In this document: positions 344-50,133 of the stretch, piece after piece
How positions within the stretch are numbered: the first letter of the stretch is position 1
Layout of the letters: the number at the start of each line of letters is the position of its first letter
Source: Escherichia phage tiwna
Reading direction: 5' to 3' (one strand)
Sequence record: NC_054896.1
Length of the DNA: 51,014 nt
Position numbers and translations under genes: made by a program
Notes under the pieces: generated by a model
The model's database searches: none
Told to the model about the DNA's origin: nothing
What the model saw: only the letters and a program-made list of their open reading frames with translations

Positions 344-535
344 ATGGCTGACTTTATGCATCAAATGATTGTTGTATTTAAGGGCAGTGAAGATGAAGAG
401 GTTCGCGAATGCTTCACCATTGAGAAATCATACAGCGCATCTTTAACCAGTTTTGGCAACATATCTATGATTGATGATAATGGCGATCCGTGGATTTTTG
501 AAGATGATACGGATTGCTTTGAGATTAAAGAATAG
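344..535 (+). CDS. small acidic hypothetical protein (63 aa)
   Basis: ATG with upstream GGAG; D/E-rich product; its TAG stop is the first triplet of the conserved box at 533. Confidence 0.5.
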   Translation: MADFMHQMIVVFKGSEDEEVRECFTIEKSYSASLTSFGNISMIDDNGDPWIFEDDTDCFEIKE

Positions 536-550
536 CACTTTTTGCAAAAA
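533..550 (+). promoter_or_regulatory. conserved box (variant TTGCAAAAA) with -10 TATAGT at 570-575 in a hairpin loop
   Basis: TAGCACTTTTTGCAAAAA; hairpin gggcttgcggTATAGTaagccc. Confidence 0.5.
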
Positions 551-606
551 CAGATTATCGGGCTTGCGGTATAGTAAGCCCATCGACAACGAAAGAGGAA
601 GAGGCG

Positions 607-906
607 ATGTTAGTACGCAATGCGATCTATAAATTCACAAACGAGATGGGGGTTCACCTTTACCACGTAAACCATCAAGGCAACACCTCAATTGCGATGT
701 ATCGCGACGCTCGCGGGAAGTGTAGGCCTTCTCTTCGTGGCAGAATTTCTCCTGCGTTCTTCATGTTTAGATGGTATGCAACAGAACAAATCAACCATAA
801 CCATTGGAATAAAGTATTGATTGCAGGAGGCCGAATTGTTGCCAGTCACGTAGTCGATCCTTGCAAACTAACCAGCCGCCAGCTTCGCAAAATGGCGCGC
901 AAATAG
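607..906 (+). CDS. hypothetical protein (99 aa)
   Basis: RBS gaggaagagg before ATG; TAG stop embedded in the box at 904. Confidence 0.5.
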   Translation: MLVRNAIYKFTNEMGVHLYHVNHQGNTSIAMYRDARGKCRPSLRGRISPAFFMFRWYATEQINHNHWNKVLIAGGRIVASHVVDPCKLTSRQLRKMARK

Positions 907-921
907 CACTTTTTGTTAAAA
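904..921 (+). promoter_or_regulatory. conserved box with -10 TATAGT at 941-946 in a hairpin loop
   Basis: TAGCACTTTTTGTTAAAA; hairpin ggcctgcggTATAGTaggcc. Confidence 0.5.
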
Positions 922-977
922 TCAACTTTACGGCCTGCGGTATAGTAGGCCCATCAACAACAAACGAGGATTAAATC

Positions 978-1241
978 ATGGCTAACAAGATCGAATTTTT
1001 TAAAGCGGTAGACATTATCGACGGCGCGCCTAGCTTCTTCGCTATCCATTCTATTGACGGCAAGGATATTGGGTACAACGTTATCCGTCGAGATGGAATC
1101 TCAAAACTTAGTGACCTGGTAGGTCATGTTGTGTCAAACGGGAAGTGTGCATGGCCCGATTCGCCACGAGAGCCACGCCGCCGCGACATGGTAGAGCCTG
1201 TTCTGCTTTACACGCTGGTAGTAGAAGGAGAAAATAAATGA
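978..1241 (+). CDS. hypothetical protein (87 aa)
   Basis: RBS gagga before ATG; tight packing with the next gene. Confidence 0.5.
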   Translation: MANKIEFFKAVDIIDGAPSFFAIHSIDGKDIGYNVIRRDGISKLSDLVGHVVSNGKCAWPDSPREPRRRDMVEPVLLYTLVVEGENK

Positions 1242-1423
1242 TTTGGCTACTTGCTTTTTTGGTTGTTTTTCTTTACATTTCAGGCCTGTTTACGTTCCGA
1301 ACATTGGTGAAATATTCTGACGCGACAGACAAGGACGATAAAATAGTTCTCGCTTTCTGGTTTGTTTGGGTGTGGTTAGCAATTTACGAGATCATCAGAG
1401 ACAAACAGAAATTTGATTGGTGA
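1238..1423 (+). CDS. small membrane protein (61 aa)
   Basis: ATGA start/stop overlap with the upstream gene; hydrophobic stretch LLAFLVVFLYISGLF. Confidence 0.45.
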   Translation: MIWLLAFLVVFLYISGLFTFRTLVKYSDATDKDDKIVLAFWFVWVWLAIYEIIRDKQKFDW

Positions 1424-1479
1424 TTCTTGCTATGGCGCATTCATGCAGTGCGCCATGTTGAGAAAACCTAAAGGGGGAA

Positions 1480-1623
1480 ATGATGCGTAACTTTGAAAAA
1501 ATCGTTACCAAAAAGAAGCGTCGCGGATACGATGAGCATGTAGAGTTTGTGAACAAGCAACGCAAGAAGCGCCATAGGCGCGAAATGCTACATAATATCA
1601 ACTCACGCTACGGAGATCATTAA
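1480..1623 (+). CDS. small basic hypothetical protein (47 aa)
   Basis: Strong RBS aaggggg before ATGATG; K/R-rich; ends 3 nt before the kinase ATG. Below the 60-aa cutoff of the ORF track. Confidence 0.35.
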   Translation: MMRNFEKIVTKKKRRGYDEHVEFVNKQRKKRHRREMLHNINSRYGDH

Positions 1624-1625
1624 TC

Positions 1626-2216
1626 ATGAAACGAGACATTATTATCCTTAATGGGCCGCCTGGCTGTGGAAAGGACACTATTGCAGCTTACCTAACGGGC
1701 CATCGTTACCCAGCGGTCAAGGCGTCATTCAAACAGCCGATGTTCGATATTGCGTTTTCCATGCTGGGCGTGTACAGATACGATGAATTTATGGACCTGT
1801 ACAACGACCGAGAGCAAAAAGAAAAGCCTCAAGTTATCTTAGGCGGCAAGTCACCTCGACAATTCATGATCTGGATTAGCGAGGAGGTCATGAAGCCAGC
1901 ATTTGGGGAACAGTATTTCGGGCGTCGCATGGTTGAAGAGATTCACGAGATGTACCGAGATTTGACGGTTGTGATCAGTGATGGCGGATTCCCCGAAGAA
2001 ATCAAGCCGCTTGTTAAGGAAGGGCATGAAGTGCATATTTGCCGATTGCATCGCGACGGCTTCACGTTTGCTGGCGATTCGAGAGACTACATTGACCTGA
2101 GCGGTTATCACTATCGAATCCATCACTATGACTTCCAATTGCAGGACGGCAAGCCGGAAATGGCTGTAAACGAGATCGTCAATACGGTCAAATGGAAGCA
2201 CACACAGATTAAATAG
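1626..2216 (+). CDS. P-loop nucleotide kinase (dNMP kinase / polynucleotide kinase-like)
   Basis: N-terminal Walker A LNGPPGCGKDT; overall resemblance to phage dNMP/polynucleotide kinase N-termini; TAG stop inside the box at 2214. Confidence 0.5.
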   Translation: MKRDIIILNGPPGCGKDTIAAYLTGHRYPAVKASFKQPMFDIAFSMLGVYRYDEFMDLYNDREQKEKPQVILGGKSPRQFMIWISEEVMKPAFGEQYFGRRMVEEIHEMYRDLTVVISDGGFPEEIKPLVKEGHEVHICRLHRDGFTFAGDSRDYIDLSGYHYRIHHYDFQLQDGKPEMAVNEIVNTVKWKHTQIK

Positions 2217-2230
2217 CACGAATTGCTAAA
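2214..2230 (+). promoter_or_regulatory. conserved box (spacer variant CGAAT) with -10 TATAAT at 2251-2256
   Basis: TAGCACGAATTGCTAAA; half-sites TAGCA/TGCTA preserved despite the altered spacer. Confidence 0.5.
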
Positions 2231-2286
2231 CGCGGGGTTATCTGCCCCGCTATAATGCGCACATCAACAAGCAAGAGGAAATTACA

Positions 2287-3216: not shown

Positions 3217-3507
3217 ATGGCAAACAAAACTTACCGCAAACTACTGGTTAACGCTTTTGAAAACATCGCGCAGTGTAACAAGTGGAACGACTCTAAACAC
3301 TCGCCAGTCACAATGAAGCGCGCCGGATTCAAAAATGCTCGTTCATGGGCGCGAGCTTTCGCAGCTTGCTATATGCCGGATGGCGGACTAGGAGCGATGG
3401 ACGATTTTTTGATCAACATGATAGAGGAAGCGGCGCGAGAGGATCGACCGCTGACACAGCTAGATTTTGATGACTTCGCGCGCGATGAGCTTTACTATCT
3501 GAGCTAA
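3217..3507 (+). CDS. hypothetical protein (96 aa)
   Basis: RBS aagggg before ATG; stop immediately followed by the box at 3508. Confidence 0.5.
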   Translation: MANKTYRKLLVNAFENIAQCNKWNDSKHSPVTMKRAGFKNARSWARAFAACYMPDGGLGAMDDFLINMIEEAAREDRPLTQLDFDDFARDELYYLS

Positions 3508-3525
3508 TAGCACTTTTTGTTAAAA
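3508..3525 (+). promoter_or_regulatory. conserved box followed by a hairpin
   Basis: TAGCACTTTTTGTTAAAA; hairpin aaggggcatttgataaagtgccctt. Confidence 0.45.
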
Positions 3526-3582
3526 CTTCCGAAGGGGCATTTGATAAAGTGCCCTTATTGAAGCGAAACAGAGGAAAGCGCA

Positions 3583-3795
3583 ATGAAAATCAAAATCACC
3601 AAAATCGACACTATCAACGGAGACGGATCAATCACTCTTGAGCAATGCGGTTTGGTTGTTGGTGATGTGCTGGAAGTTGACGGACATTTCAGCGACGGAT
3701 CTTATTGTGTTATTGCGCCGCGTAACAGCGAGTTTATCAAGGCTGGCGACAATATTAGTGTTAACCATGACGAATGCGAGGTAGTAGAAGAATGA
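3583..3795 (+). CDS. small acidic hypothetical protein (70 aa)
   Basis: RBS gaggaaag before ATG; preceded by a box-plus-hairpin promoter module. Confidence 0.5.
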   Translation: MKIKITKIDTINGDGSITLEQCGLVVGDVLEVDGHFSDGSYCVIAPRNSEFIKAGDNISVNHDECEVVEE

Positions 3796-4055
3796 TCACG
3801 ATTAACCTGTCAGAGCAGCAAGCGCGCATTATGTTGTCGGCCTTCGGTTGGCGAGACAATGACGGTTTACAGGCCACAGTTAAAATTTATGAGCCAGTGG
3901 CGCGTGAAGTTTTCAGCCAGCTAGAACACGCATTTGATCCTGCTGGGACTGAGCAAGCGGAAACTGCCGCATGGTTCGGAGAGAACGGATACAGAGATCA
4001 GCAAGTCGAAAACTGGAAGCGCATAAACGAGACTATGGAGGAATCAGGTTTATGA
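3792..4055 (+). CDS. hypothetical protein (87 aa)
   Basis: ATGA overlap with the upstream stop; internal ATG preferred over the track's alternative start at 3774. Confidence 0.45.
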   Translation: MITINLSEQQARIMLSAFGWRDNDGLQATVKIYEPVAREVFSQLEHAFDPAGTEQAETAAWFGENGYRDQQVENWKRINETMEESGL

Positions 4056-5554: not shown

Positions 5555-5560
5555 AAATCA

Positions 5561-6160: not shown

Positions 6161-7728
6161 TGATCATATGGGAAGATTTGACGGCGGCGCAAAAGCGAGC
6201 CATTAAAGAAATCAGTGAGCATTCATTCGAAAAGATGATCAGAATCTGGTTCCAATTATTGCAGGGGCAAAAATTCCAGAGCAACTGGCATTTTAGCTTA
6301 TTGTGCAGTGAGGTAGAGAAGATCATCAATGGAGAGTCGCAGAATGTGATTTTCAACATTACGCCAGGTAGCGGCAAGACTGAGATTTTCTCGATCCACA
6401 TGCCACCCTACGCGTCATTGAAAAGCCGGAAAGTGAGAAACCTTAACCTTTCGTTTAGTGATGGCCTTGTCCAGCAAAACAGCAACCGGATAAAGGAGAT
6501 TATCGGTTCTCCTGAGTGGCAAGAGCTATGGCCTGGAAAACTGGCAAAGGCGAGCGCTAAAGATCTGATAGTCACCGAAGGCGGCAAGGTTAAATTGCAA
6601 GTTAACTCACGTTCTATTGGCGGCCAGGTAACAGGTTTGCGTGGCGGCTATATGGATGATGGTTTTACTGGTATGCTGGTTCTTGACGATCCAGACAAGC
6701 CGGATGATATGCTTTCTAAGGTCAAGCGCGAGGCTATTCACATGCGGTTAAAAAACACAGTGCGATCGCGTCGAATGAAAGACACCACGCCAATTGTTAT
6801 GGTGCAACAGCGACTACACGTTAATGATTCCACCTGGTTCATGCTTAATGGCGGGATGGGTGGTATTGAGTTTAAAGTCGTGAGCATTCCGGCGCTGGTT
6901 ACGAAAGAATACCGCGAAACGCTTCCTGATTGGTTGAAGCCTGAATTTGATCGTGATGTGCTGTCAAGTAAGCCAGTGATGATAGATGGCGTCGCTCATT
7001 ATTCATTTTGGCCTGCGAAGGAAAGCGCGGAGGAGTTGCTTGCATTGCGCAATGCAGATCCTTACACGTTCGCCAGCCAATACCAACAGCAACCAATCGC
7101 GCTTGGCGGGAACGTGTTTAAAACAGAGTGGTTCCAGTATTACGGAAGCGGCGAAAAGTGCGCACTACCAAAACCGGATCGCTTTGAATACACATTTATT
7201 ACTGGAGATACCGCGCAGAAGGCCGGAGAGCTTAACGACTATTCGGTTTTTTGTTATTGGGGGATGTATAAGAATCGCGTTTACTTCATTGATGGCATTC
7301 GCGGAAAGTGGGAAGCGCCGGATCTTGAATTAAATTTTATTGCCTTCGTTAACCAGTGCTGGAAGCGCAATAAGGAGTGTGGCAGCTTGCGACGTATCCA
7401 CATTGAGGATAAGGCCAGCGGCACGGGTTTGATTCAGGGGGCCAAAAAGAAGATCCCGATTGATATAAATCCCGTTCAGCGAAGCAATGACAAGGTGACG
7501 CGAGCAATGGACGCCGCGCCAGTAATGAGGGCCGGACGTGTGGCGCTGCCAGAAAATCACCCCATGCTGCCTGAGATACTGGCAGAGGTTGCAGCATTCA
7601 CTTTTGATGATTCTCATCCCCATGATGATATTGTCGATAATATAGTTGATGCTGTTAACGTCGAAATGAATTTGGCAGATGATCCGGTAGCAAGGATGAA
7701 AAAGCTGGCAGGTCTACGCAATAAATAG
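6160..7728 (+). CDS. terL: terminase large subunit
   Basis: Walker A TPGSGKTE in the N-terminal ATPase, acidic nuclease-type C-terminus, 522 aa, precedes portal. Confidence 0.8.
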   Translation: MIIWEDLTAAQKRAIKEISEHSFEKMIRIWFQLLQGQKFQSNWHFSLLCSEVEKIINGESQNVIFNITPGSGKTEIFSIHMPPYASLKSRKVRNLNLSFSDGLVQQNSNRIKEIIGSPEWQELWPGKLAKASAKDLIVTEGGKVKLQVNSRSIGGQVTGLRGGYMDDGFTGMLVLDDPDKPDDMLSKVKREAIHMRLKNTVRSRRMKDTTPIVMVQQRLHVNDSTWFMLNGGMGGIEFKVVSIPALVTKEYRETLPDWLKPEFDRDVLSSKPVMIDGVAHYSFWPAKESAEELLALRNADPYTFASQYQQQPIALGGNVFKTEWFQYYGSGEKCALPKPDRFEYTFITGDTAQKAGELNDYSVFCYWGMYKNRVYFIDGIRGKWEAPDLELNFIAFVNQCWKRNKECGSLRRIHIEDKASGTGLIQGAKKKIPIDINPVQRSNDKVTRAMDAAPVMRAGRVALPENHPMLPEILAEVAAFTFDDSHPHDDIVDNIVDAVNVEMNLADDPVARMKKLAGLRNK

Positions 7729-7743
7729 CACTAATTGCTAAAA
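7726..7743 (+). promoter_or_regulatory. conserved box (spacer variant CTAAT) after terL, with atypical spacing to TATAAT at 7749-7754
   Basis: TAGCACTAATTGCTAAAA; half-sites preserved. Confidence 0.4.
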
Positions 7744-7755
7744 AGTTATATAATC

Positions 7756-7782
7756 AAGGCTGGATTTTTCCAGCCTTTTTTA
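7756..7782 (+). terminator. rho-independent terminator after terL
   Basis: Hairpin ggctggatttttccagcc followed by a T-run. Confidence 0.6.
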
Positions 7783-12325: not shown

Positions 12326-12351
12326 CTAATAGCATAAAAAAACATTGCACG

Positions 12352-12368
12352 TTTAACAAAAAGTGCTA
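12352..12368 (-). promoter_or_regulatory. conserved palindromic box, inverted copy inside the late operon
   Basis: TTTAACAAAAAGTGCTAT, directly upstream of a terminator-like hairpin and the major capsid RBS. Confidence 0.4.
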
Positions 12369-12374
12369 TCATCT

Positions 12375-16034: not shown

Positions 16035-16038
16035 AACA

Positions 16039-16061: not shown

Positions 16062-16100
16062 ATTCCTGTAAAATCAATCTATCAAATAAATCAATTCCAC

Positions 16101-16119
16101 TTTTAACAAAAAGTGCTAT
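16101..16119 (-). promoter_or_regulatory. conserved palindromic box, inverted copy abutting the chaperone RBS
   Basis: TTTTAACAAAAAGTGCTAT immediately followed by AAGGAG and ATG 16134. Confidence 0.4.
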
Positions 16120-26671: not shown

Positions 26672-26727
26672 CTTCAATACTCCTTAGTTGTCGTTGTCTG
26701 TAACTATACACGATCCGACAAGCGGCG

Positions 26728-26744
26728 TTTAGCAAAAAGTGCTA
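26728..26744 (-). promoter_or_regulatory. conserved palindromic box (minus orientation) with -10 at 26703-26708
   Basis: TAGCACTTTTTGCTAAA on the minus strand, 19 bp from TATAGT, upstream of the lipoprotein operon. Confidence 0.5.
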
Positions 26745-26854
26745 CTTGTTATTTTTTGTTTTTCGGTGTTATCGAATTTAAGACGGCGTAAATTTAGCGC
26801 AAATTTTAGCCAACATAAGGGCAATAAACAATCAATAAAATAGATATATACATA

Positions 26855-31879: not shown

Positions 31880-31897
31880 TTGTAAAATCCTCCTAAA

Positions 31898-31914
31898 TAG
31901 CACTTTTTGCTAAT
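31898..31914 (+). promoter_or_regulatory. conserved palindromic box (perfect palindrome TAGCA-N5-TGCTA) abutting the tail fibre RBS
   Basis: TAGCACTTTTTGCTAAT; lies between the primase terminator and the tail fibre RBS. Confidence 0.4.
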
Positions 31915-31943
31915 GACAATGCAGATAATAGCATTTTCAAATG

Positions 31944-33447: not shown

Positions 33448-33459
33448 CTAGTCACCTCA

Positions 33460-33477
33460 TAGCATTTTTTGTTAAAA
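33460..33477 (+). promoter_or_regulatory. conserved box with -10 TATTAT at 33497-33502, in the divergent region between the HTH and helicase genes
   Basis: TAGCATTTTTTGTTAAAA with the 19-bp spacing to the -10. Confidence 0.5.
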
Positions 33478-33534
33478 CAGTTTATTGTAATGAGTCTATT
33501 ATATACTCCAAATGGCATTTTTTAAAGGTTTAAG

Positions 33535-35532: not shown

Positions 35533-35951
35533 TGGCTATAACTGATAAAGGCGATTATCTTGAGTTTTACGAAAGGGATCCAACCGACACGAGAAGGGAA
35601 GTTAATCACCAGATAGATAGTTTTCAGTGGTTGACTTATGCTCATCCTTATTTGCTGGCGTGGCATACGGTAAACGAGAATGAGAAGTCTAAAGCAACGG
35701 CGATGATTGATCAGCAGTCCGGCTTGGTTAAGGGAGTAAGCGATTTCATCATCCTGATTGGTTTAAACGGAAAATACCCCTTTGCAGCGATTGAGATCAA
35801 ACGAGTGAATAAATCAGGCAAGGGGAAAGCATCACCAGTCAGCGATGAACAAAAGGCTTTTTTGCGTCGCGTTCGCAGCTTAGGAGGATTCGCTGCGGTA
35901 GCCTACGGATTCAATCAGTTTAAGTTGGCTATTGAATACATGCTTAAATAG
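35532..35951 (+). CDS. VRR-NUC domain nuclease
   Basis: Motifs AIEIKR (E.K) and QKAFLRRVRSLGG typical of VRR-NUC; ATG overlaps the helicase stop. Confidence 0.5.
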   Translation: MAITDKGDYLEFYERDPTDTRREVNHQIDSFQWLTYAHPYLLAWHTVNENEKSKATAMIDQQSGLVKGVSDFIILIGLNGKYPFAAIEIKRVNKSGKGKASPVSDEQKAFLRRVRSLGGFAAVAYGFNQFKLAIEYMLK

Positions 35952-35966
35952 CACTTTTTGTTAAAA
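35949..35966 (+). promoter_or_regulatory. conserved box with -10 CATAAT at 35986-35991
   Basis: TAGCACTTTTTGTTAAAA; TAG is the stop codon of the upstream gene. Confidence 0.5.
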
Positions 35967-36031
35967 CTGGCGCGATGGATTGCGCCATAATTCAATAACG
36001 CGAGATGGCTTTTAATAGCGGAGAAATGAAA

Positions 36032-36761: not shown

Positions 36762-37019
36762 ATGGAAAAAGAGAGAAGCGTTTATTTAAATGAAACTGGC
36801 GAGTGGTTGTTATTTCGCGCTATGGTGTGCGATGCACTTGATAAAAACCCTAACGTGAAAAAGATGATTGATTGCGATCCGTGGGAATTTTCAAGCGCAT
36901 TAGATATGAGCTTTGAGGAGACAAGAAAACTCCCGCTTGAAAAATGGCACGAACAAATCAGAAATGACATGCAAGAGTTTGTCGATTCGTGGAATTTTCA
37001 GCACGGAATGATCCACTAA
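36762..37019 (+). CDS. hypothetical protein (85 aa)
   Basis: RBS ggag before ATG. Confidence 0.45.
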   Translation: MEKERSVYLNETGEWLLFRAMVCDALDKNPNVKKMIDCDPWEFSSALDMSFEETRKLPLEKWHEQIRNDMQEFVDSWNFQHGMIH

Positions 37020-37065
37020 TAGCACTTTTTGTTAAAACGCCCGGCCTAGTGTCGGGCATAATTAT
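37020..37065 (+). promoter_or_regulatory. conserved box plus hairpin plus -10 CATAAT; left arm of the ~46-bp inverted repeat
   Basis: TAGCACTTTTTGTTAAAAcgcccggcctagtgtcgggCATAAT, nearly identical to the reverse complement of 40234-40279. Confidence 0.55.
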
Positions 37066-37094
37066 TTCAACGAAGCAAGCATGAGGAAATAAAA

Positions 37095-37600: not shown

Positions 37601-38716
37601 ATGAAAAATGTAAAAATTACAGATGAGCAATTCAAGATCGAACGGGCGGCAGGTAAGACATATAAACAGATCGCTCAAGAGTACGGAATGAATGTGAGAA
37701 GCGTCGAGCGTCGCGCGGCGCGTCTTGCAAAGCAAGGACAGTTATCGACCATCGGAGCGCCTGGTTTTGGTGTTCATGGTGAGTCAGTAATGACTGACAA
37801 AGAAGGAAATATAATCCTCAAGTGGACCAAAACCAGCAAGGATAAAGAGCAATTAGAGGCATTGATGCGCGCAGCAATGGAGGCATTTAGCGAGGAAGTG
37901 CCGCGATTAGATCCAGTTCCATTGCAGGAGCGTAACTATAATGAAACGCTTTCATTGTATCCGATCTTTGACATGCACTTAGGAGCTATGGCCCATAAGC
38001 ACGAATGCGGCGAAAATTGGGATACTGCGACGGCAGAGCGCGTTATGAATAACTTTATCGACTATGCTTTGATGTGCGCACCGGACAGCGAAAAGGCTGT
38101 TATCCTGATTGGTGGCGATATGCTGCATAGCGACGGCCTGGAGGCGGTGACACCTGCAAGCGGTCACGTACTTGATCAAGATAGCCGATATGCAAAATTG
38201 GTTTACGTTGCAATCCGTGCAATGCGTCGCGCAATTAATAAAATGCTGTTAAAGCATAAACATGTTGAGGTCCAGATCGTAGAGGGGAATCACGACCAAT
38301 CAGGAATGATTTGGCTACGCGCAGCAATGGCGGCAGCATATGAGAACGAGCCGCGCGTTTACGTTGATGTTTCTCCTCGCGTTGTTCACCACACGCAATA
38401 CGGAAAAACTTTCCTTGCGTACCATCACGGGCACACAGTGCGTAAACCGGAGACTTTGCTAATGATGTGCGCGTCAGATTGGCGGGAGGACTTCGGAAAC
38501 TCAAAAACGATGTATGCGCACGTAGGGCACTGGCATCACCAGACCGTGACAGAAACGTCGCTTGGCATCGTGGAGGTGCATAGCACCCTGGCGGCAAAAG
38601 ACGCATACGCCGCGCGAGGTGGCTGGAGATCTCGACGCCGTGCAGCGGTTATCATTTACGACAAAGAGCATGGAGAAGTCGGGCGATTTGTTCACTATCC
38701 AGAAATGATGAATTGA
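37601..38716 (+). CDS. calcineurin-like metallophosphoesterase with N-terminal HTH-like segment
   Basis: Motifs DMH, GGDMLH, GNHD, HHGH and GHWHH in canonical order; N-terminal KTYKQIAQEYGMNVRSVERRAARL; start could instead be upstream at 37451. Confidence 0.5.
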   Translation: MKNVKITDEQFKIERAAGKTYKQIAQEYGMNVRSVERRAARLAKQGQLSTIGAPGFGVHGESVMTDKEGNIILKWTKTSKDKEQLEALMRAAMEAFSEEVPRLDPVPLQERNYNETLSLYPIFDMHLGAMAHKHECGENWDTATAERVMNNFIDYALMCAPDSEKAVILIGGDMLHSDGLEAVTPASGHVLDQDSRYAKLVYVAIRAMRRAINKMLLKHKHVEVQIVEGNHDQSGMIWLRAAMAAAYENEPRVYVDVSPRVVHHTQYGKTFLAYHHGHTVRKPETLLMMCASDWREDFGNSKTMYAHVGHWHHQTVTETSLGIVEVHSTLAAKDAYAARGGWRSRRRAAVIIYDKEHGEVGRFVHYPEMMN

Positions 38717-40199: not shown

Positions 40200-40233
40200 A
40201 ATTTTACCTTTTGGTTGTTTCGTTTCGATGAAA

Positions 40234-40279
40234 CAAATATACCCGACACTAGGCCGGGCGTTTTAACAAAAAATGCTAT
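40234..40279 (-). promoter_or_regulatory. conserved box plus hairpin plus -10; right arm of the ~46-bp inverted repeat
   Basis: Reverse complement reads ATAGCATTTTTTGTTAAAAcgcccggcctagtgtcgggTATATT. Confidence 0.55.
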
Positions 40280-40470: not shown

Positions 40471-40792
40471 CGCCCATCTCCCCTATTCTCGCCATATCCC
40501 TGATCCAGTCGTTGCGCATACCATCCAGGCTATACAATTCGAATCCGAAAGGCCGCTTTGACGATCCTTTGGACCAGTATTTACCGCAGACCCCATCTAT
40601 ATAGCCAGCCGTCATCATTCTTGCGCAAAATTCCTTAGATGCAAGGCTGGCGAACATTCGCGGCGTAAGTCCGGCGGCCCGTGCGAGCCGCTCACATTCT
40701 CTATGCTGATAGATAAATTTGGCTATGTGCTGCCTGTTAAACCAGTCGTATGACTCACACCATTTATACAGATCAAGCAAAAACATAATCAT
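40397..40792 (-). CDS. hypothetical protein (131 aa)
   Basis: ATGA coupling to the upstream ATPase gene. Confidence 0.45.
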   Translation of the reverse strand: MIMFLLDLYKWCESYDWFNRQHIAKFIYQHRECERLARAAGLTPRMFASLASKEFCARMMTAGYIDGVCGKYWSKGSSKRPFGFELYSLDGMRNDWIRDMARIGEMGDDELFQAKANRQDLEALRRKFNIT

Positions 40793-42369: not shown

Positions 42370-42422
42370 TCGTTAGCTTCTCCTTTGTGGGCCGTAAATT
42401 TTAACGGCCCAATACTACCCCG

Positions 42423-42441
42423 TTTTGTCAAAAAGTGCTAT
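42423..42441 (-). promoter_or_regulatory. conserved box (variant TTGACAAAA), minus orientation
   Basis: TAGCACTTTTTGACAAAA on the minus strand; TAG is the stop of gene 42438..42659. Confidence 0.5.
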
Positions 42442-42659
42442 TTGATCCGCTCTATTGCAACCAGAAGTCGATCAGGCTGGCGGTCGCTGTAGCATTCTCC
42501 TGTAATCCCATCCTTAAACGTAAAGTAAAGCGCCTTATGATATGAAAAACCAATCAGCCAACCTACCGCCGTTTTTTTGATGGGCCTGACTATATCGCCA
42601 GGCTTGAAAGTCTTTGTGGTAGAATGCGTTACTTTGTAACGGTTTTCACTGTTTATCAC
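42438..42659 (-). CDS. hypothetical protein (73 aa)
   Basis: ATGA coupling with the upstream gene. Confidence 0.45.
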   Translation of the reverse strand: MINSENRYKVTHSTTKTFKPGDIVRPIKKTAVGWLIGFSYHKALYFTFKDGITGECYSDRQPDRLLVAIERIK

Positions 42660-43042
42660 AGATATTTACCCTCAAAAAGATAACAGCCGCCAGCAGAGAA
42701 TCCGACCTCTTCACGGTACAGGTTCCAGCGGTCGCCGCACTCATCAAAAACATAACCCGCAACGCTTCCAAGCGGTCGCCCTTTCTCGATCTGGTATCGC
42801 TTGCCCTGCTTAAAGTGCTTTTTGCACGGCATGTTATGATCTACAAACGTGCAAAGAACGGTTTTTGTGTTAATGGCGCGGTAATCATCTCGGTTTGCTG
42901 GAAGCCAGCGGCTACCCTTAACAAGCGTCTTAACCTGGAACTCTTCCACCTCGATCACATCATCACTTCCTGCAATCTTCTGATAAACCGTTTTAAAACG
43001 GCCTTTCATCAATACGTTGGTTTCATTACAGATAACATTCAT
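42656..43042 (-). CDS. hypothetical protein (128 aa)
   Basis: GGAG RBS; downstream of the box at 43097. Confidence 0.45.
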   Translation of the reverse strand: MNVICNETNVLMKGRFKTVYQKIAGSDDVIEVEEFQVKTLVKGSRWLPANRDDYRAINTKTVLCTFVDHNMPCKKHFKQGKRYQIEKGRPLGSVAGYVFDECGDRWNLYREEVGFSAGGCYLFEGKYL

Positions 43043-43096
43043 GATCAGATCTCCTTTGTTTGTTCGATGTGATTATGCCAGGTTTTTACACCTGGC

Positions 43097-43115
43097 TTTT
43101 AACAAAAAGTGCTAT
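43097..43115 (-). promoter_or_regulatory. conserved box, minus orientation, with -10 at 43062-43067
   Basis: TAGCACTTTTTGTTAAAA, hairpin gccaggtgtaaaaacctggc, then CATAAT. Confidence 0.5.
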
Positions 43116-43822
43116 TTTGAGTTTGACTCAAAGACGGCGCGAGCAAAGCCGCGCGGAGTGAGGGAGCGGATCATCTTTGTGCGCGATGACTTACCGCCAG
43201 TTTTGGCCCAGCCTGGATTATCTTTGTCTTCCTCTTTCGGCAGGATTAAAGCGCGCGGAGGAATAACAAAGCCGTTGCCAGTCCAGAGGCACGTTTTCTT
43301 AAAATAGCGATCCCGTGCCGGAATAATATCAGGGAAGTCGGGATGTTTATCATCTTCCGGCAGATAGCCAGCGTAATCGCACGGATGGAACGTATAATCA
43401 GGCTTTCGCCATAACGTTGACAACTTGCCAACCGGATTTTCGATCATGTAAGGAACACCGAAATAATCAGCTATATCAGCCGCGATTCTGCAAGTGTCGG
43501 CGGCCTCATCCTGGAACGATGGATTCTCAAGGCGTTTTTTGGCCCAATGGCGAGATCCGCTATTTGCAAGGTCAGTGCATGGTGGGAAGGCCATAATAAA
43601 ATCAGGATTGCCCCACTCATTATTGATTGCCTTAACATAAAAAGCATCATCAATCCAGGCGTTAACGTATTCGATATTCTCATGCTGTATGCGCACTGAC
43701 TGGTAATCACCGTGATCGCCACCGTCAGCATTAAAGCAAATGCACTTATAGCCATTATCAGCCCAATCTTTAACGGCTTTACCAGATCCATCAAATAGGG
43801 AGAATATTAAACCTTTATACAT
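43112..43822 (-). CDS. small DNA C5-cytosine methyltransferase-like protein
   Basis: Motif I-like LFDGSG, motif IV-like FPPC, motif VI-like IENP in the expected order; GAGG RBS before ATG 43822. Confidence 0.4.
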   Translation of the reverse strand: MYKGLIFSLFDGSGKAVKDWADNGYKCICFNADGGDHGDYQSVRIQHENIEYVNAWIDDAFYVKAINNEWGNPDFIMAFPPCTDLANSGSRHWAKKRLENPSFQDEAADTCRIAADIADYFGVPYMIENPVGKLSTLWRKPDYTFHPCDYAGYLPEDDKHPDFPDIIPARDRYFKKTCLWTGNGFVIPPRALILPKEEDKDNPGWAKTGGKSSRTKMIRSLTPRGFARAVFESNSK

Positions 43823-43832
43823 CGTCATTACC

Positions 43833-44057
43833 TCAAAACGGAAAACAGCGCGGACAACTAGGATCGAAATCGCATCCACAATCATTAACAATCATATTGG
43901 GATCTGCAAATATTGCGCTTGATTCAAGATCCATATCCATATCACCTAAAGCCTCATCAAGAGTCTTAATTTTATATGCCACTTCAAGCGCCGCCTCTTT
44001 ATTTAGTCCGGCATCTTCTGCCATTTGAAGGCGCTCAAAAAAACCGTCCTGACTCAT
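43833..44057 (-). CDS. hypothetical protein with Cys-rich C-terminus (74 aa)
   Basis: C-terminal CGCDFDPSCPRC; acidic N-terminal half. Confidence 0.45.
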   Translation of the reverse strand: MSQDGFFERLQMAEDAGLNKEAALEVAYKIKTLDEALGDMDMDLESSAIFADPNMIVNDCGCDFDPSCPRCFPF

Positions 44058-44761: not shown

Positions 44762-45042
44762 TATGCGATCCCAGTTACGTTAAAACTTACAGCCTTTGTT
44801 GCGCTAAATACATAAGCATCAACAGCGCCGCCAAATACACGAATTTTACCCTGGCCGTACTGCGCATTCATATTTCGCCAAACCGTTCTATTAGAGCAGA
44901 ATGCGCTACCAGTCTTAATAAGCGTATCCATCTCTTTTCTTAGATCGCGATAGTCAAGCCAGAATCTAAAGGCACGCTGTTTAATTCGCGCCGCCTTGAT
45001 TTTTTCTCTTGCGCTATTGAAATCATTCTTTTCGTATGCCAT
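44761..45042 (-). CDS. hypothetical protein (93 aa)
   Basis: ATG overlaps the upstream stop. Confidence 0.45.
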   Translation of the reverse strand: MAYEKNDFNSAREKIKAARIKQRAFRFWLDYRDLRKEMDTLIKTGSAFCSNRTVWRNMNAQYGQGKIRVFGGAVDAYVFSATKAVSFNVTGIA

Positions 45043-45239
45043 TAAATGATCTCCATGTATGTTTCAAAGCCATTTAACTTGAACAGGCCGTTTTCACATT
45101 TGCGCACGTTCCAAGTTAGCCCTGAGTGGTACGCCTCCATATCATCAAGGTCAATGGTGATTTCAGCGCCTTTCTTAAACAAACCTTTTTCGTGAGACTT
45201 GTCGCGCTTAACAACTTTAACATCAACCTGATTTTCCAT
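45042..45239 (-). CDS. hypothetical protein (65 aa)
   Basis: GAGGA RBS before the internal ATG (MENQ...) of track ORF 45042..45290. Confidence 0.45.
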   Translation of the reverse strand: MENQVDVKVVKRDKSHEKGLFKKGAEITIDLDDMEAYHSGLTWNVRKCENGLFKLNGFETYMEII

Positions 45240-45295
45240 CTTTAAATCCTCGCTTGTTTTCGATGGGTGTAATATACCATTCAGGCGCACATCGT

Positions 45296-45314
45296 TTTTA
45301 ACAAAAAGTGCTAT
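45296..45314 (-). promoter_or_regulatory. conserved box, minus orientation, with -10 at 45271-45276
   Basis: TAGCACTTTTTGTTAAAA then 19 bp then TATATT. Confidence 0.5.
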
Positions 45315-45744: not shown

Positions 45745-45801
45745 TTCAAATCCTCGCATTCGTTGTCGATGCGTGTAATGTACAGGAATGCGAGGATTGA
45801 G

Positions 45802-45820
45802 TTTTAACAAAAAGTGCTAT
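45802..45820 (-). promoter_or_regulatory. conserved box, minus orientation, with -10 at 45777-45782
   Basis: TAGCACTTTTTGTTAAAA then 19 bp then TACATT. Confidence 0.5.
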
Positions 45821-46520: not shown

Positions 46521-46774
46521 TTTTTCTTCTCCTGCAATAAGCAAACATCATTGATAAAATCAGCACGGCCCTTAATGTTGCTGATGTGGAACGTCTTTTC
46601 AGCGTACAGGCCATCACCTTCAATAACGATCATTACGCGAGTCGGTTTATTCACGGGCGCACACGAAAAGAGTGGTCGCGCCGGAAGAAATTTAGTAGCC
46701 ACATCCAGGTTAGCCCTGGCGGCCCTGCAAAATGCCTCCGCCAGATCCAAATCATTTTCGGTAATCACCGCCAT
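46508..46774 (-). CDS. hypothetical protein (88 aa)
   Basis: ATG overlaps the upstream stop. Confidence 0.45.
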   Translation of the reverse strand: MAVITENDLDLAEAFCRAARANLDVATKFLPARPLFSCAPVNKPTRVMIVIEGDGLYAEKTFHISNIKGRADFINDVCLLQEKKKCWM

Positions 46775-47046
46775 TACTTCTTGATCTCCTCACTGATAAA
46801 TTTCAGCACCTGACGTAAGAAAACCTCGTTGTTGATAGTCGCTGGCAATTCTTCTTTCACTTCTTGCGGCAGATAGATATTGCCGTGCCAGGTCAAGCAA
46901 TCGTAGTTGATACGATAAGAGCAAAGCCACTCGCAATCGTTATCTGCTTCCCAAATGCAGAGTTGCAGAACATCGCCAAAATCCTCAACAGTCAGATCCA
47001 GACCGTGACGCTTAGCGAAGTTGAAAGTGGTTTTGCTGATGTTCAT
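46774..47046 (-). CDS. hypothetical protein (90 aa); first gene of the leftward early cluster
   Basis: GGAG RBS; directly downstream of the promoter box at 47106. Confidence 0.5.
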   Translation of the reverse strand: MNISKTTFNFAKRHGLDLTVEDFGDVLQLCIWEADNDCEWLCSYRINYDCLTWHGNIYLPQEVKEELPATINNEVFLRQVLKFISEEIKK

Positions 47047-47105
47047 TGCTATCTCCTGAGCGGTTCGTTTTGATGTGTGTAATGTACCCGATCAGGTGGC
47101 CTGAG

Positions 47106-47124
47106 TTTTAACAAAAAGTGCTAT
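47106..47124 (-). promoter_or_regulatory. conserved box, minus orientation, with -10 at 47081-47086
   Basis: TAGCACTTTTTGTTAAAA then 19 bp then TACATT. Confidence 0.5.
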
Positions 47125-47394
47125 TTGACGGTTAGCGCCAGGATTGTGATCGAAATAATCAAAAGTAATCATTCGTAATCAAATCACGTCAAAATGATGA
47201 TTGCCTTTGCAAATTTGATGAGAAAAGCAATCACGTTTAATCATTGGTTGCAGGGGAGATAGTGAAACCTTCCCCTCTCGCCTCAATTTTCCGCCTGGCT
47301 GTCAGTGGTTGTTATGTTCCGTTCCCGCCTGTTCTTTTGTTGACCTTCCGCAAAATACGATAACAAAAAATAACAAACAATACCTATATAATAC

Positions 47395-47660
47395 ATTGAA
47401 AAATAAGGATTATTTATTTATATGTATCTATATATTCTCTTTTGTTATCTTGGTTATTGTGGTATTTGGTGGGGTATATAGTTTTTGTGTATCTGTATGT
47501 GTGTATGGGTATGTAGGGGCATATATATCTATATGGCACTTTCCGCGAGAAAACTTCGATAACAGGCAATGATAACATTGATTTATAAGGAAAAATAACG
47601 CCTATATTGTTATTGTGCCACCATGTAAAATTGATAAAACACGCGGGAACAAGAAAAAAC
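47395..47660. repeat. GT-rich strand-biased noncoding region B, homologous to 26855-27060
   Basis: Shared blocks ttatttatttat, ttgttatct, gtatctgtatgtg and gggaacaagaaaaa; G-runs ggtgggg and gtagggg. Confidence 0.5.
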
Positions 47661-47662
47661 AG

Positions 47663-47691
47663 TTGACACATTAAATAGCATTATTGATAAT
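47663..47691 (+). promoter_or_regulatory. near-consensus sigma70 promoter (TTGACA-17-GATAAT)
   Basis: -35 at 47663-47668 and -10 at 47686-47691, about 28 nt before the AGGAGG RBS of gene 47720. Confidence 0.6.
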
Positions 47692-47719
47692 GCCCACACC
47701 TAACAACCAGGAGGCAGAA

Positions 47720-48184
47720 ATGAGCGAGCAATCATTCACTGACACGCTGCGCCGTGCCGCTATTATGCTGGCTAATGGCGAGGAAGAGACGATCAAGATT
47801 CCTGACGCGTATTTGCAGGTCCACATGTTCGGCAAGAAGTCGGCAAGCAATCCGGCGGCCTACATTCGCCAGATCATGAGTCGAGTGCCAGAAGTCGCCG
47901 AGCGGGGGCGCGTATCCGTTACCCGTGGCGTTTACGGGCCGGAAGATGAAAACTTCGGTAGCACTTTCTACGAGGTGCGGATTGTTGAAGGCCGTCGCAA
48001 GGTTTACAACAAAGAGGCACTGGAAAGGGCAGTACGCCAGGCTAAGCGCAAGGTTGCAGAGGCGATCATTGATATGTCACCCAACCTGGCAAACTATGCG
48101 CCGGAAGAGTACGAAACATTATCAAAGGCCGTCGCTGACTTTCACGCGATGATCAAAAAAACTTTCCTGGAGGATGAGCAATGA
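47720..48184 (+). CDS. hypothetical protein (154 aa), likely immediate-early
   Basis: Consensus promoter plus AGGAGG RBS; internal ATG of track ORF 47684. Confidence 0.55.
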   Translation: MSEQSFTDTLRRAAIMLANGEEETIKIPDAYLQVHMFGKKSASNPAAYIRQIMSRVPEVAERGRVSVTRGVYGPEDENFGSTFYEVRIVEGRRKVYNKEALERAVRQAKRKVAEAIIDMSPNLANYAPEEYETLSKAVADFHAMIKKTFLEDEQ

Positions 48185-48441
48185 AAAAGGCATTAATCGG
48201 CGTTTTGGTGGCAATGGCATTCCTGACCGGATGCGAAAAGGCATCAGAATCAACGGTTGTCGTAGGCGTGGAGTCAGATTTCAAAGTCGGCCGCCTGTTC
48301 ACTGTTGACGGATGCACAGCATACAGATTCTATGATAACGGTCGCGCGATCTATTACACCAATTGCAAGGGCGCAACGGATAGCACGTACAACAGCGGAA
48401 AGAACGTAATGCACCAGCAAGTCACAACAGATATTAAATAG
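48181..48441 (+). CDS. small lipoprotein (86 aa)
   Basis: Signal peptide with lipobox LTGC (MKKALIGVLVAMAFLTGC); ATGA coupling. Confidence 0.5.
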   Translation: MKKALIGVLVAMAFLTGCEKASESTVVVGVESDFKVGRLFTVDGCTAYRFYDNGRAIYYTNCKGATDSTYNSGKNVMHQQVTTDIK

Positions 48442-48456
48442 CACTTTTTGTTAAAA
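48439..48456 (+). promoter_or_regulatory. conserved box with -10 CATAAT at 48476-48481
   Basis: TAGCACTTTTTGTTAAAA, hairpin gccaggcgcaaagcctggc, then CATAAT. Confidence 0.5.
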
Positions 48457-48513
48457 CGCCAGGCGCAAAGCCTGGCATAATAGCCTCATCGAAACGAGAT
48501 TGAGGAAACAAAA

Positions 48514-48699
48514 ATGGCACGTCGCATCACCAAAGACCTTAAAGTTCTTAACAAAGAAAACGTAGTTAAAATCCTGGTTATCTGGGGCTACAACGAAGAA
48601 ACAGCAAAGCAGAAGGTAGAGGCAGGTTATGACCTGGCTGTAAAAGCAATGCCAAACGACGACGCCAAAGGCATTGCAAACTATGTAGCTTTCTTTTAA
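48514..48699 (+). CDS. hypothetical protein (61 aa)
   Basis: RBS gagga before ATG. Confidence 0.45.
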   Translation: MARRITKDLKVLNKENVVKILVIWGYNEETAKQKVEAGYDLAVKAMPNDDAKGIANYVAFF

Positions 48700-48714
48700 T
48701 TAGCAGGTGAATAA

Positions 48715-48900
48715 ATGAAAACGAAATTAGTCCATAAATCAGAAATCAAGATCGGCGATACTGTGATTCACAACGGAGAGCTTAGAACGGTTGACAAAGA
48801 GTCAATAAGCCACGATGAATTTGTGGGGATTTTGTTGTTCGGTGACTCTTATCGTCTTGGTTACAAGATGGTTGAGCTTGTGGAAGAGGTAAAATTCTAA
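48715..48900 (+). CDS. hypothetical protein (61 aa)
   Basis: RBS aggtg before ATG; stop abuts the box at 48902. Confidence 0.45.
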   Translation: MKTKLVHKSEIKIGDTVIHNGELRTVDKESISHDEFVGILLFGDSYRLGYKMVELVEEVKF

Positions 48901-48901
48901 A

Positions 48902-48918
48902 TAGCACTTTTGTTAAAA
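48902..48918 (+). promoter_or_regulatory. conserved box (one T shorter) with -10 CATAAT at 48938-48943
   Basis: TAGCACTTTTGTTAAAA then 19 bp then CATAAT. Confidence 0.5.
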
Positions 48919-48998
48919 CTCAAAGACGACAACCAGGCATAATAAATCACATAGGGCGGCACGGCGTCGCCCAGTAAAATCAATCAGGAGAAAGCACC

Positions 48999-49889
48999 AT
49001 GTTAAAACTTACTGACATTAAATTCCCGATCACCTTCGAATCTCGCGGAGTTGGTCATTTCATGTTTACCGACGAGAAGACATGCACTAAGTTTAACGAA
49101 TACGGAAGTCCAAACGCTTCAACAATGGAGATTGAACACTTCATTGAAGCGCACAATAAACACTACAACTCACTCAGAGACTACGGTTACGCAATGCTAG
49201 GCTACACCTGTTTCCACTACAAGCCATATAAAGGCCAGGTGTTGCCAGTGCGCTCACCGGAACGCGTAGAGATTCCGATGGTCGAGATGAAAACCTGCGA
49301 CTATAAAAAATTGTGGCGCTTAAGTGTGGACAATATCAAGTATCCGATCACGTTCCGCTACGCTGGTAATTTAACGATTCGCTACACATCGCGCGACAAT
49401 GGCGTTTATAGCGGTGGTCAGAAATCAGAGCTTAAGGTGGATTTCTTTGTTAATGGTCATAATAAATACAATCCGCACAATGAAAAAGATAAGATTTACT
49501 ATGTGGAAGACATTACAAAACACTTGTTTGGAGAAACTCCATTCGGCGGCGGAAAGACGTCAATTCAAAAAATAATTGGCGAGGAGATCCACAAAGCGGC
49601 TGCCGAAATGAAAGCGCCTGGAGGCTGGCGTATTGATAAGAGCGCCTTTGCAAATCAAGAAATCGTAACGCAGGGCGCGATTGAAGATATGCCAGTTGCA
49701 GCCACGCTAAAAGGAGTCCGGCTTGATGATGGTGTGTGGTTTGAAGTAACGGCTACACCAAAGACGATCGAGATTCATGATGACGTTGTTATTCTTCTGC
49801 TTCACTACGGCGGCTATAAAAACCGGACGGTTGCAGGTGAGATCAGCATCAAGCGCGGAACGATGGTTAAGTGGAAGGTGAAGATTTGA
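48999..49889 (+). CDS. hypothetical protein with an internal tandem repeat (296 aa)
   Basis: RBS aggag; repeated segment IKFPITFESRG / IKYPITFRYAG. Confidence 0.5.
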   Translation: MLKLTDIKFPITFESRGVGHFMFTDEKTCTKFNEYGSPNASTMEIEHFIEAHNKHYNSLRDYGYAMLGYTCFHYKPYKGQVLPVRSPERVEIPMVEMKTCDYKKLWRLSVDNIKYPITFRYAGNLTIRYTSRDNGVYSGGQKSELKVDFFVNGHNKYNPHNEKDKIYYVEDITKHLFGETPFGGGKTSIQKIIGEEIHKAAAEMKAPGGWRIDKSAFANQEIVTQGAIEDMPVAATLKGVRLDDGVWFEVTATPKTIEIHDDVVILLLHYGGYKNRTVAGEISIKRGTMVKWKVKI

Positions 49890-49965
49890 GTTTGTTCACT
49901 GCGGCGCACGTCGCCGCATGGATCGGATTGTTTGCCTACCTGTTTAGCTTTTATTGAGGTGAGAG

Positions 49966-50118
49966 ATGGCTACATGGATTCTACTGATTCTTATGATTGA
50001 TGGCGGCGTTGACCATATCGAAATGAATAGCCAGCAATCTTGCATTGAGGCACGAGAGCAGATCAAGAACAACAACAGGTTTTATGCGTACACTCACACG
50101 CTATGTATTAAGAAATAG
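49966..50118 (+). CDS. small membrane peptide (50 aa)
   Basis: RBS gaggtgagag; hydrophobic N-terminus; TAG stop is the first triplet of the box at 50116; below the ORF-track cutoff. Confidence 0.35.
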   Translation: MATWILLILMIDGGVDHIEMNSQQSCIEAREQIKNNNRFYAYTHTLCIKK

Positions 50119-50133
50119 CACTTTTTGTTAAAA
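50116..50133 (+). promoter_or_regulatory. conserved box with -10 TATAAT at 50152-50157
   Basis: TAGCACTTTTTGTTAAAA then 18 bp then TATAAT. Confidence 0.5.

Follow-up and report, generated by a model that had tools for sequence, protein, structure and literature searches.

Phages related to T1 encode neither an RNA polymerase nor a sigma factor and carry almost no consensus promoters, and how they are transcribed was an open question in 2024. In phage TLS, 18 intergenic direct repeats of 21 nt (aaATAGCACnnnTTGnTAAAA) lie in the same orientation as the genes, about 76 nt before their start codons, and only three sigma70-like promoters were found (PMC11447400). The same repeat is found in T1, Rtp and Rogue1, and German et al. 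2024 left its function among their open questions, offering a stoperator, an enhancer or an upstream (UP) element as candidates (PMC11447400). Here we describe a recurrent 18-bp box, TAGCA-N5-TGYTAAAA, in the 51,014 nucleotides of Escherichia phage tiwna (NC_054896.1), a stretch that we refer to as a whole as the window. The TLS repeat and the tiwna box are the same element, since consensus, co-orientation and distance from the start codon agree. We consider it likely that these boxes are class II promoters of the marbox type, used together with a host activator of the MarA/SoxS/Rob kind. The element was already known, and it is the functional assignment that appears to be new: the TLS paper did not relate the repeat to the marbox, to a -10 element at a constant spacing or to MarA, SoxS or Rob of the host, and our literature search found nothing that joins the repeats to the marbox or to these proteins, although an earlier remark in the Rtp or T1 genome papers is possible.

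Class II marboxes stand in forward orientation and overlap the -35 position (PMC6900184, PMC12052159), and a match to the -35 hexamer is characteristically absent from the promoters that contain them (PMC10268841). The site is non-palindromic and is bound by MarA-type proteins as monomers (PMC6900184, PMC12052159), and on micF the position of RamA is about -41 (PMC8811837). With host promoters of this class (micF; lpxC P2, lpxL P1, rfaY P1) the phage boxes share the asymmetric box, its forward orientation, the 18 bp between box and -10, a centre near -41, the lack of a -35 hexamer and, as predicted, dependence on sigma70. Unlike host sites, they lie in the genome of a virulent phage, about one per 2-3 kb, and unlike most host sites they are nearer the consensus. 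Features found only on the phage side are a 5' AAT, a G at -14, the start region CATCGAAAC and an overlapping RNA hairpin; the G at -14 and the conservation of the start region are absent from the description of host marbox promoters. A second point of comparison is the middle promoters of phage T4, in which a MotA box is combined with appropriation of sigma by AsiA. There too an activator box stands in for the -35 element, the -10 of host sigma70 is kept and the promoters form a temporal regulon; however, MotA and AsiA are phage-encoded and their box lies near -30, whereas in tiwna we found no phage activator and the site is of the host type, near -41.

The exact box pattern occurs 14 times in the window against 0.01 copies expected, and 19 copies lie within three mismatches of the commonest form, TAGCACTTTTTGTTAAAA, against 0.10 expected. 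Together with the copy at 2214, which has the spacer CGAAT, and the copy at 48902, from which one T is deleted, these amount to 21 boxes, 12 on the + strand (533, 904, 2214, 3508, 7726, 31898, 33460, 35949, 37020, 48439, 48902 and 50116) and nine on the - strand (12351, 16101, 26727, 40261, 42423, 43097, 45296, 45802 and 47106). An earlier sequence-only reading of the same DNA had counted at least 21 copies with the same division between the strands and had described the spacer variants at 2214 (CGAAT) and 7726 (CTAAT); our counts, which are far above chance, agree with it on both points.

Extended by one flanking base at either end, the box becomes a 20-bp element, ATAGCACTTTTTGTTAAAAC. The 20-bp marbox consensus with which we compared it, AYNGCACNNWNNRYYAAAYN, reportedly stems from Martin et al. 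1999 and is corroborated by two papers. With at most one mismatch among its 14 specified positions, this consensus is found at 19 sites in the window, 15 of which are boxes, against about one in shuffled sequence, and these 15 boxes agree with it at 13-14 of the 14 positions. The published 15-bp marbox is GCAHWWWWTGYYAAA (PMC6900184), and the core of the commonest box, GCACTTTTTGTTAAA, fits it at 15 of 15 positions. We also built an independent marbox matrix from sites mapped by chromatin immunoprecipitation sequencing, with the genuine sites scored by leaving each one out in turn. Scores of the phage boxes on this matrix range from 14.0 to 18.0 bits and exceed those of 78-100% of the genuine sites. 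When hits of at least 12 bits are counted, the window has 27, and in 16 of these the -10 is correctly spaced; shuffled sequences give 3.1 and 0.2.

The agreement extends to the spacing of the promoter. In the E. coli K-12 genome, micF consists of ACAGCACTGAATGTCAAAAC, 18 bp, TAGAAT, 7 nt and the annotated +1, with the centre of the box at -41.5; in the phage, the order is ATAGCACTTTTTGTTAAAAC, 18 bp, TATAGT, CATAAT or TATAAT, 6 nt and a conserved CA. At the predicted start site, the forward box lies over the -35 position, as in the class II range of -36 to -55. Counted from the 18-bp box, a -10-like hexamer follows in 18 of the 21 copies, 19 bp away in 15 and 18 bp away in three, and the hexamers of the box promoters agree with TATAAT at 4-6 of 6 positions; no such hexamer is present at 18-19 bp after the boxes at 7726, 12351 and 31898. 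The sequence-only reading had listed 15 copies with this spacing and had noted the lack of a canonical -35. Both observations hold, the second in that a single one of the 18 box promoters (50128) passes a scan for the sigma70 consensus, by virtue of the box's own TTAAAA. Two other hexamers were considered and rejected: TTGTTA as a -35 element, which is 22 bp from the -10, and a sigma32-like reading of CCCCAT 3' of the -10, which fails on spacing.

With respect to genes, the start codon is 71-79 nt from the box in most copies. Seventeen boxes are co-oriented with the downstream gene and with their own -10, the box at 16101 is antisense, and those at 12351, 31898 and 7726 fail this description. 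As far as sequence can tell, then, the boxes do mark a class of activator-type promoters that lack a -35 and keep a fixed distance to the -10, as had been proposed. The label phage-specific, which had been attached to this class, is not supported by the comparison with micF, because both site and spacing copy those of the host regulon. Boxes do precede co-oriented early genes, as well as middle genes and genes of DNA metabolism, and the regulon that they define is a non-structural one.

The half-sites TAGCA and TGCTA had been interpreted as an inverted repeat and as the signature of a dimeric protein-binding site. The 5-bp dyad does exist, with 10 bp from centre to centre; in 13 of the 21 copies, however, its second half deviates (TGTTA), and 12 of these 13 are the commonest box. 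Conservation across the family is asymmetric: AATAGCAC, TTG and TAAAA are near-invariant, and while the G of the left half is invariant, the partner that it would need for the dyad is C in some copies and T in others. There is no complementarity between the invariant C7 and T10, both flanks of the box are AA rather than AA and TT, and the least conserved part is the A/T-rich centre, with the variants TTT, GAA, TAA and AAA. Two-fold symmetry therefore fails in the half-sites as well as in the flanks, and this asymmetric conservation, together with the exact match to the marbox, led us to reject the palindromic reading. Because MarA-type proteins bind their non-palindromic site as monomers, the dyad can be seen as incidental.

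The same evidence bears on the idea that a helix-turn-helix (HTH) protein of the phage binds TAGCA-N5-TGCTA as a dimer near -42 and, like lambda cI at PRM, acts as activator or repressor, which we think unlikely. The obvious candidate is the product of 32971-33447, a Cro/YdaS-like protein with a single HTH, one of two binders suggested by the sequence-only reading. Besides the existence of the dyad, this idea can draw on the genomic setting, as T1 and Webervirus have a conserved gene for a single-HTH 'transcriptional regulator' in the corresponding position, the box at 33460 directly adjoins the HTH gene, and a sigma70-like promoter at 33526-33498 could provide early expression of it. Apart from the asymmetry (C7, TTG and the AAAA tail) and the frequency of TGTTA, however, it would leave the joint fit to the consensus, the orientation and the micF spacing of the marbox to chance, at about 1e-5 or less. 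Moreover, a box already forms part of the first promoter of the leftward early arm (47074-47124), and the factor must therefore pre-exist at injection. No evidence links either the HTH protein or the other suggested binder to the box; the latter had been given as the product of 37601..38716, and the product of 37451-38716 shows only a sub-threshold match to sigma70 region 4.

To follow the element in relatives, we pooled the window, T1, Klebsiella phage KpV522 and 27 loci from IMG/VR that are linked to a related terminase. Among the 249 unique sites in this set, TAnnnT lies exactly 18 bp after the 20-bp box in 159, and the next most frequent offset accounts for 14. In T1 (Tunavirinae; large terminase about 65% identical) the matrix gives 23-25 hits, and a correctly spaced -10 follows in 14-17; in KpV522 (a Webervirus; about 61% identity in the large terminase) the numbers are 20-25 and 12. 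As a control we used about 700 kb of unrelated viral contigs, taken from among the listed IMG/VR contigs with a single chance match to the exact box pattern; only 3 of 47 matrix hits in them have such a -10 hexamer. In a Vibrio myovirus related through the terminase alone, there is one matrix hit and no composite site. Box and spacing, which the sequence-only reading had suggested looking for in related phages, are thus conserved, and the family consensus can be written aAATAGCACtttTTGcTAAAAc-N13-t..GgTAtAaT...c.cAtcgaaac, including the G at -14 that resembles an extended -10. The box is unchanged across lineages with large terminases merely 61-65% identical, which fits constraint from a conserved host protein.

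German et al. 2024 raised the idea of an UP element for the TLS repeats (PMC11447400), and in this form the box would be an upstream element that works without any activator, read by the C-terminal domain of the alpha subunit (alpha-CTD) or by sigma and boosting promoters of the extended -10 type. The A/T-rich centre, the span of the box from about -50 to -31 and the conservation of G at -14, as in extended -10 promoters, would all suit such an element. Nonetheless, we regard it as quite improbable, given that UP elements are not known to need an invariant ATAGCAC or a fixed TTG..TAAA, and that the A/T-rich centre is precisely the least conserved part of the box, a pattern that corresponds to the marbox with its two recognition elements and tolerant A/T spacer.

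If the boxes are class II marboxes, a protein of the MarA type has to come from somewhere. A search of the six-frame translation with phmmer and hmmsearch, using provisional query sequences of MarA, SoxS and the N-terminal domain of Rob, gave no homologue (best E 0.28), and Pfam scans of 40 phage proteins contained no AraC-type HTH domain. On this basis we rejected a phage-encoded MarA-like protein. With no AraC-type protein of the phage in these searches, the box is most likely bound by an activator of the host, namely Rob, MarA or SoxS, which the phage has probably borrowed to fire about 17 of its promoters.

According to the mechanism that we propose, each box would be an asymmetric 20-bp marbox that accommodates one molecule of a MarA-type activator of the AraC family, with its two HTH motifs. 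The forward marbox would occupy the place of the -35, centred at about -41 and 18 bp from the -10, in a class II arrangement as in micF. The -10, with its conserved G at -14, would be read by RNA polymerase containing sigma70, and the box-bound activator would replace the missing contact with a -35. Transcripts are predicted to start, probably, at the conserved A of CATCGAAAC, 7 nt past the -10, and would carry a C/A-rich leader of about 25 nt and a Shine-Dalgarno sequence. In unstressed cells the activator would be Rob, a protein made without any inducer, although part of it is sequestered; MarA or SoxS would take over after phenolic, antibiotic or oxidative stress, and RamA would serve where the host is Klebsiella or Salmonella. 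That MarA, SoxS or Rob would bind and activate during infection, and where transcription would start, we infer from these arrangements.

The start region and leader are conserved in their own right, with cAtcgaaac about 7 nt after the -10 (e.g. 581-590, 45255-45265 and 48487-48496) and a C/A-rich, G-poor stretch between it and the Shine-Dalgarno sequence.

Several points weigh against a host activator at these promoters. The protein queries are provisional, and our literature search found no binding, transcription or start-site data for promoters of Drexlerviridae. MarA and SoxS are scarce in unstressed cells. Rob is reported to be largely sequestered in the absence of inducers (PMC10268841), and the supply of activator may therefore fall short in ordinary growth. 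We found no report in the literature of a rob, marA or soxS mutant resistant to T1-like phages; redundancy among the three proteins or basal activity of the promoters could hide the effect of a mutation. The partial 5-bp dyad, with 10 bp between the centres of its halves, could accommodate an HTH dimer. Finally, the phage consensus is tighter than that of the host, with AAT before GCAC and the G at -14 near-invariant, which could reflect common descent of the cassettes or additional specificity.

The individual promoters that we assign to class II are distributed over both strands. On the + strand, the first lies at 532..582, with ATAGCACTTTTTGCAAAAAC, 18 bp, TATAGT (570-575) and a predicted +1 at A582; it drives the gene 607-906, and its TAG is the stop codon of 344-535. 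The next, at 903..953, has the -10 TATAGT (941-946) and a predicted +1 at A953, and drives the gene 978-1241, its TAG being the stop of 607-906. At 2213..2263 the GAATT-spacer variant fits 14/14 consensus positions; it has the -10 TATAAT (2251-2256), drives the gene 2287-2667 and uses as its TAG the stop of 1626-2216. The promoter at 3507..3557 drives 3583-3795, and its -10, TAAAGT (3545-3550), stands in the loop of a covarying hairpin. Further to the right, 33459..33509 is a GCAT variant with the -10 TATTAT (33497-33502) that drives the helicase gene at 33535; 35948..35998 (-10 CATAAT; TAG as the stop of 35532-35951) drives the Dam methylase gene, which starts at 36032; and 37019..37069 (-10 CATAAT) drives 37095 and later genes. 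In the rightward early genes, 48438..48488 (-10 CATAAT) drives the DUF7421 gene 48514-48699, 48901..48950, whose marbox has the 1-nt deletion in its T tract (-10 CATAAT, 48938-48943), drives 48999-49889, and 50115..50164, whose -10 (TATAAT) falls in the loop of a hairpin, drives a gene with its start at 50188.

On the - strand, the promoter at 26696..26745, with 18 bp between box and -10 and the hexamer TATAGT, drives a leftward cluster of membrane-protein genes (start 26677), and that at 40229..40279 is a GCAT variant with the -10 TATATT. At 42391..42441 we find the TGACAAAA variant, with the -10 TAAAAT in a hairpin loop, in front of the DNA helicase gene 40789-42369, and at 43065..43115 (-10 CATAAT) a promoter that drives 42656-43042 and whose TAG is the stop of 43112-43891. 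Those at 45264..45314 (-10 TATATT) and 45770..45820 (-10 TACATT) drive a Gp54-like gene (start 45239) and a gene with its start at 45743, respectively, and 47074..47124 (-10 TACATT), the first leftward promoter of the early arm, drives 46774-47046. Pfam matches among the early genes driven by box promoters comprise Gp54, 'phage antiviral trigger protein' (E 4e-38), DUF7174, DUF7421 and DUF7180, the early genes with matches being 45042-45239 (-), 47684-48184 (+), 48514-48699 (+) and 3774-4055 (+).

The boxes outside class II are of another kind. The marbox with the best score of the genome, 18.0 bits, lies at 7725..7777 (+) at the end of the terminase gene, its TAG being the stop of the large terminase. 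A canonical terminator (7756-7777) follows it and there is no -10 at the class II distance, and it is probably not a class II promoter; we saw no equivalent in T1. Three reverse boxes lie just 5' of late structural genes, each of them after a terminator, and are conserved in T1 and the family. The first is contained in a late promoter of the sigma70 type in front of the major capsid gene (12345..12372, +; TTGCAC, 16 bp, TATCAT), the spacer of which is a reverse marbox (12350-12369, -). Equivalent promoters are found in T1 (TTGACG...TATTAT, ~15060-15090) and in KpV522 (TTGACC-16-TATTCT, 13922-13949), the latter being annotated independently as a promoter in the KpV522 record. In E. coli, pbpG has a marbox in the spacer between -35 and -10 and MarA, SoxS and Rob repress it (PMC12052159). 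The capsid promoter of the phage shares the marbox in the spacer with this type of repression, which also includes purA, hdeA and rob; by analogy, its arrangement would be one of repression.

The second reverse marbox, at 16069..16119 (-) within the + strand tail block, has a -10, TAGATT (16076-16081), and is conserved across the family. Its box at 16101 points into the bidirectional terminator 16038-16056, after the major tail gene, while its reverse complement adjoins the Shine-Dalgarno sequence of the tape-measure chaperone gene 16134. Box, -10 and the following GATTTTACAGG segment are all conserved in T1 and the IMG/VR relatives, and to judge from this layout the promoter would produce an antisense RNA of about 35 nt that runs into the terminator. 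The third, at 31897..31916 (+), is 18 nt 5' of the ATG of the - strand tail-fibre gene and just past the primase terminator 31970-31953; it has an equivalent copy in T1 and no usable -10 in either direction. We also considered the reverse boxes as class I sites for the late genes and rejected this, as the start would fall 52-62 bp downstream, at or beyond the start codon.

An additional arrangement concerns a divergent pair. The -10 of the helicase box promoter (TATTAT, 33497-33502, +) overlaps the divergent sigma70-like promoter TTTAAA-17-TATAAT (33526-33498, -), which serves the operon of the Cro-like HTH protein and primase, the box at 33460 being in the 5' untranslated region of the HTH gene. 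With their -10 elements overlapping within 33497-33526, the helicase and HTH/primase promoters face each other and would compete for polymerase. Taken together, these sites suggest that one and the same factor may serve as activator of early and middle genes and hold back certain late or divergent ones. One may go further and suppose that Drexlerviridae have handed promoter recognition over to host MarA, SoxS and Rob, with one box used in two modes, but we offer this only tentatively and find it doubtful. In such a scheme, early and middle genes would be turned on from the forward boxes at -41, approximately 17 in number, and the reverse boxes at the capsid, tape-measure chaperone and tail-fibre genes would hold these genes back. 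Replication would then create thousands of boxes and titrate the activator, which would flip expression from early to late, and the same titration would drain activator from the host regulon for efflux, porins and envelope defence.

The boxes are also closely fitted to the ends of the preceding genes. The TAG of the box is the in-frame stop codon of the upstream open reading frame (ORF) in 11 of the 21 copies (533, 904, 2214, 7726, 35949, 48439, 50116, 45313, 43114, 42440 and 40278), among them the five examples of such reuse given in the sequence-only reading, and at 3508 and 37020 a TAA stop directly adjoins the box. At their 5' edge, many copies read TAAATAGCAC...GTTAAAA, e.g. at 529-535, 2210-2216, 35945-35951 and 48435-48441. 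Since the upstream TAA, the TAG of the box and its internal TAA close the three frames, such a cassette can follow an ORF in any frame, a property that would suit modular shuffling of genes. In this respect the boxes recall the promoter-early stem-loop (PeSL) cassettes known from T4-type phages. Each may be a substrate on which modular shuffling acts, and in both, compact repeats made of promoter and stem-loop lie between small, variable early ORFs. PeSL cassettes contain ordinary sigma70 early promoters, whereas the tiwna element has a marbox as its upstream part and a stem-loop that lies across the core promoter.

Could the boxes, then, be mainly something other than promoters, such as roadblocks resembling stoperators or cassette boundaries that promote recombination in the way of PeSL? 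They are intergenic and co-oriented with transcription (PMC11447400), TAG and the internal TAA shut two frames with the upstream TAA often shutting the third, most copies are accompanied by a stem-loop, many small orphan ORFs are flanked by boxes, and the reverse copies at the three late genes are not class II promoters. Neither function, however, needs TAnnnT in an 18-bp register, a conserved +1 region or a distance of about 75 nt to the start codon, and roles as roadblock or in recombination could be secondary rather than exclusive. We therefore see such an explanation as very improbable.

The stem-loops nevertheless form a consistent feature. Within the 34 nt that follow the box, 12 of the 21 sites of tiwna contain a stem-loop whose strength exceeds that of about 98% of genomic windows (Mann-Whitney p = 4e-5), examples being 560-581, 3534-3556, 37039-37057 and 48459-48477. 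Among the 159 unique promoters of the family, 70% fold at -10 kcal/mol or below, compared with 4.7% of shuffles, and do so with 83 different 5' arms. The commonest geometry has the -10 within the loop, and its 3' arm is the GC-rich segment from -6 to -1; in a second class, the hairpin ends just before or inside the -10 and is followed by a U-rich stretch. Within one orthologous group, 84 of 84 cells pair, with compensatory changes in 3 of 7 pairs (0 of 500 shuffles). The sense strand folds more stably than the antisense strand (-11.4 vs -8.8 kcal/mol; 121 sites vs 31, Wilcoxon p = 1e-17), and its stems contain twice as many G-U pairs.

Because the sense strand folds better, the structure probably acts in RNA that is read through from the upstream gene, where it would probably be a terminator, a pause site or a stabiliser of 3' ends. 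Action as a cruciform or as an antisense terminator is unlikely; we ruled out both on the stability of the sense strand and the excess of G-U pairs, and as to the antisense terminator, the commonest geometry separates the T-run from the stem by about 10 nt. The T1 record labels equivalent hairpins as rho-independent terminators. In the window, only the hairpins at 37039-37057 and 40259-40241, which are the same spacer hairpin, pass a scan for terminator-like structures, and in the commonest geometry it is AUCGA, not U residues, that directly follows the stem.

The class II marbox reading of the repeat turns the question of how these phages are transcribed into a concrete mechanism that can be tested. 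If it is true, the development of the phage would be tuned by bile salts, salicylate, oxidants and antibiotics, with relevance to combinations of phages and antibiotics and to the behaviour of phages in the bile-rich gut. Dependence on a host activator could also help to explain the robustness of T1 contamination. As compact expression modules that depend on an activator, the cassettes may further interest synthetic biologists.

As regards the genome as a whole, the Escherichia phages atuna, tonnikala, tunus and SECphi27 are 96-97% identical to the first 20 kb of the window, and tonnikala is classified under Drexlerviridae, Tempevirinae, Warwickvirus. The 51,014-bp window looks like a whole, circularly permuted genome of a T1-like member of the Drexlerviridae of the Warwickvirus type. 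The terminase, head and tail block occupies the + strand from about 5.6 to 25.5 kb, and the remainder outside the early arms consists of genes for replication, recombination and lysis. Promoters of the sigma70 consensus type are not enriched genome-wide (26, 32 and 34 vs 31.0, 28.6 and 30.6 in shuffles). The best canonical sigma70 promoter of the genome, and the sole strong one, is at 47663..47691 (+; TTGACA, 17 bp, GATAAT; 11/12); it is not a box promoter and heads the rightward early arm. The early arms, made up of small genes, diverge from either side of about 540 bp of non-coding DNA (47124-47660), which may be an origin, a pac site or a region related to injection. This region is unusually rich in TA and TG and contains short tandem repeats, namely TAATCAAAAG (x2.8), ATAACAAAAA (x2.3) and a 14-mer (x2.1).

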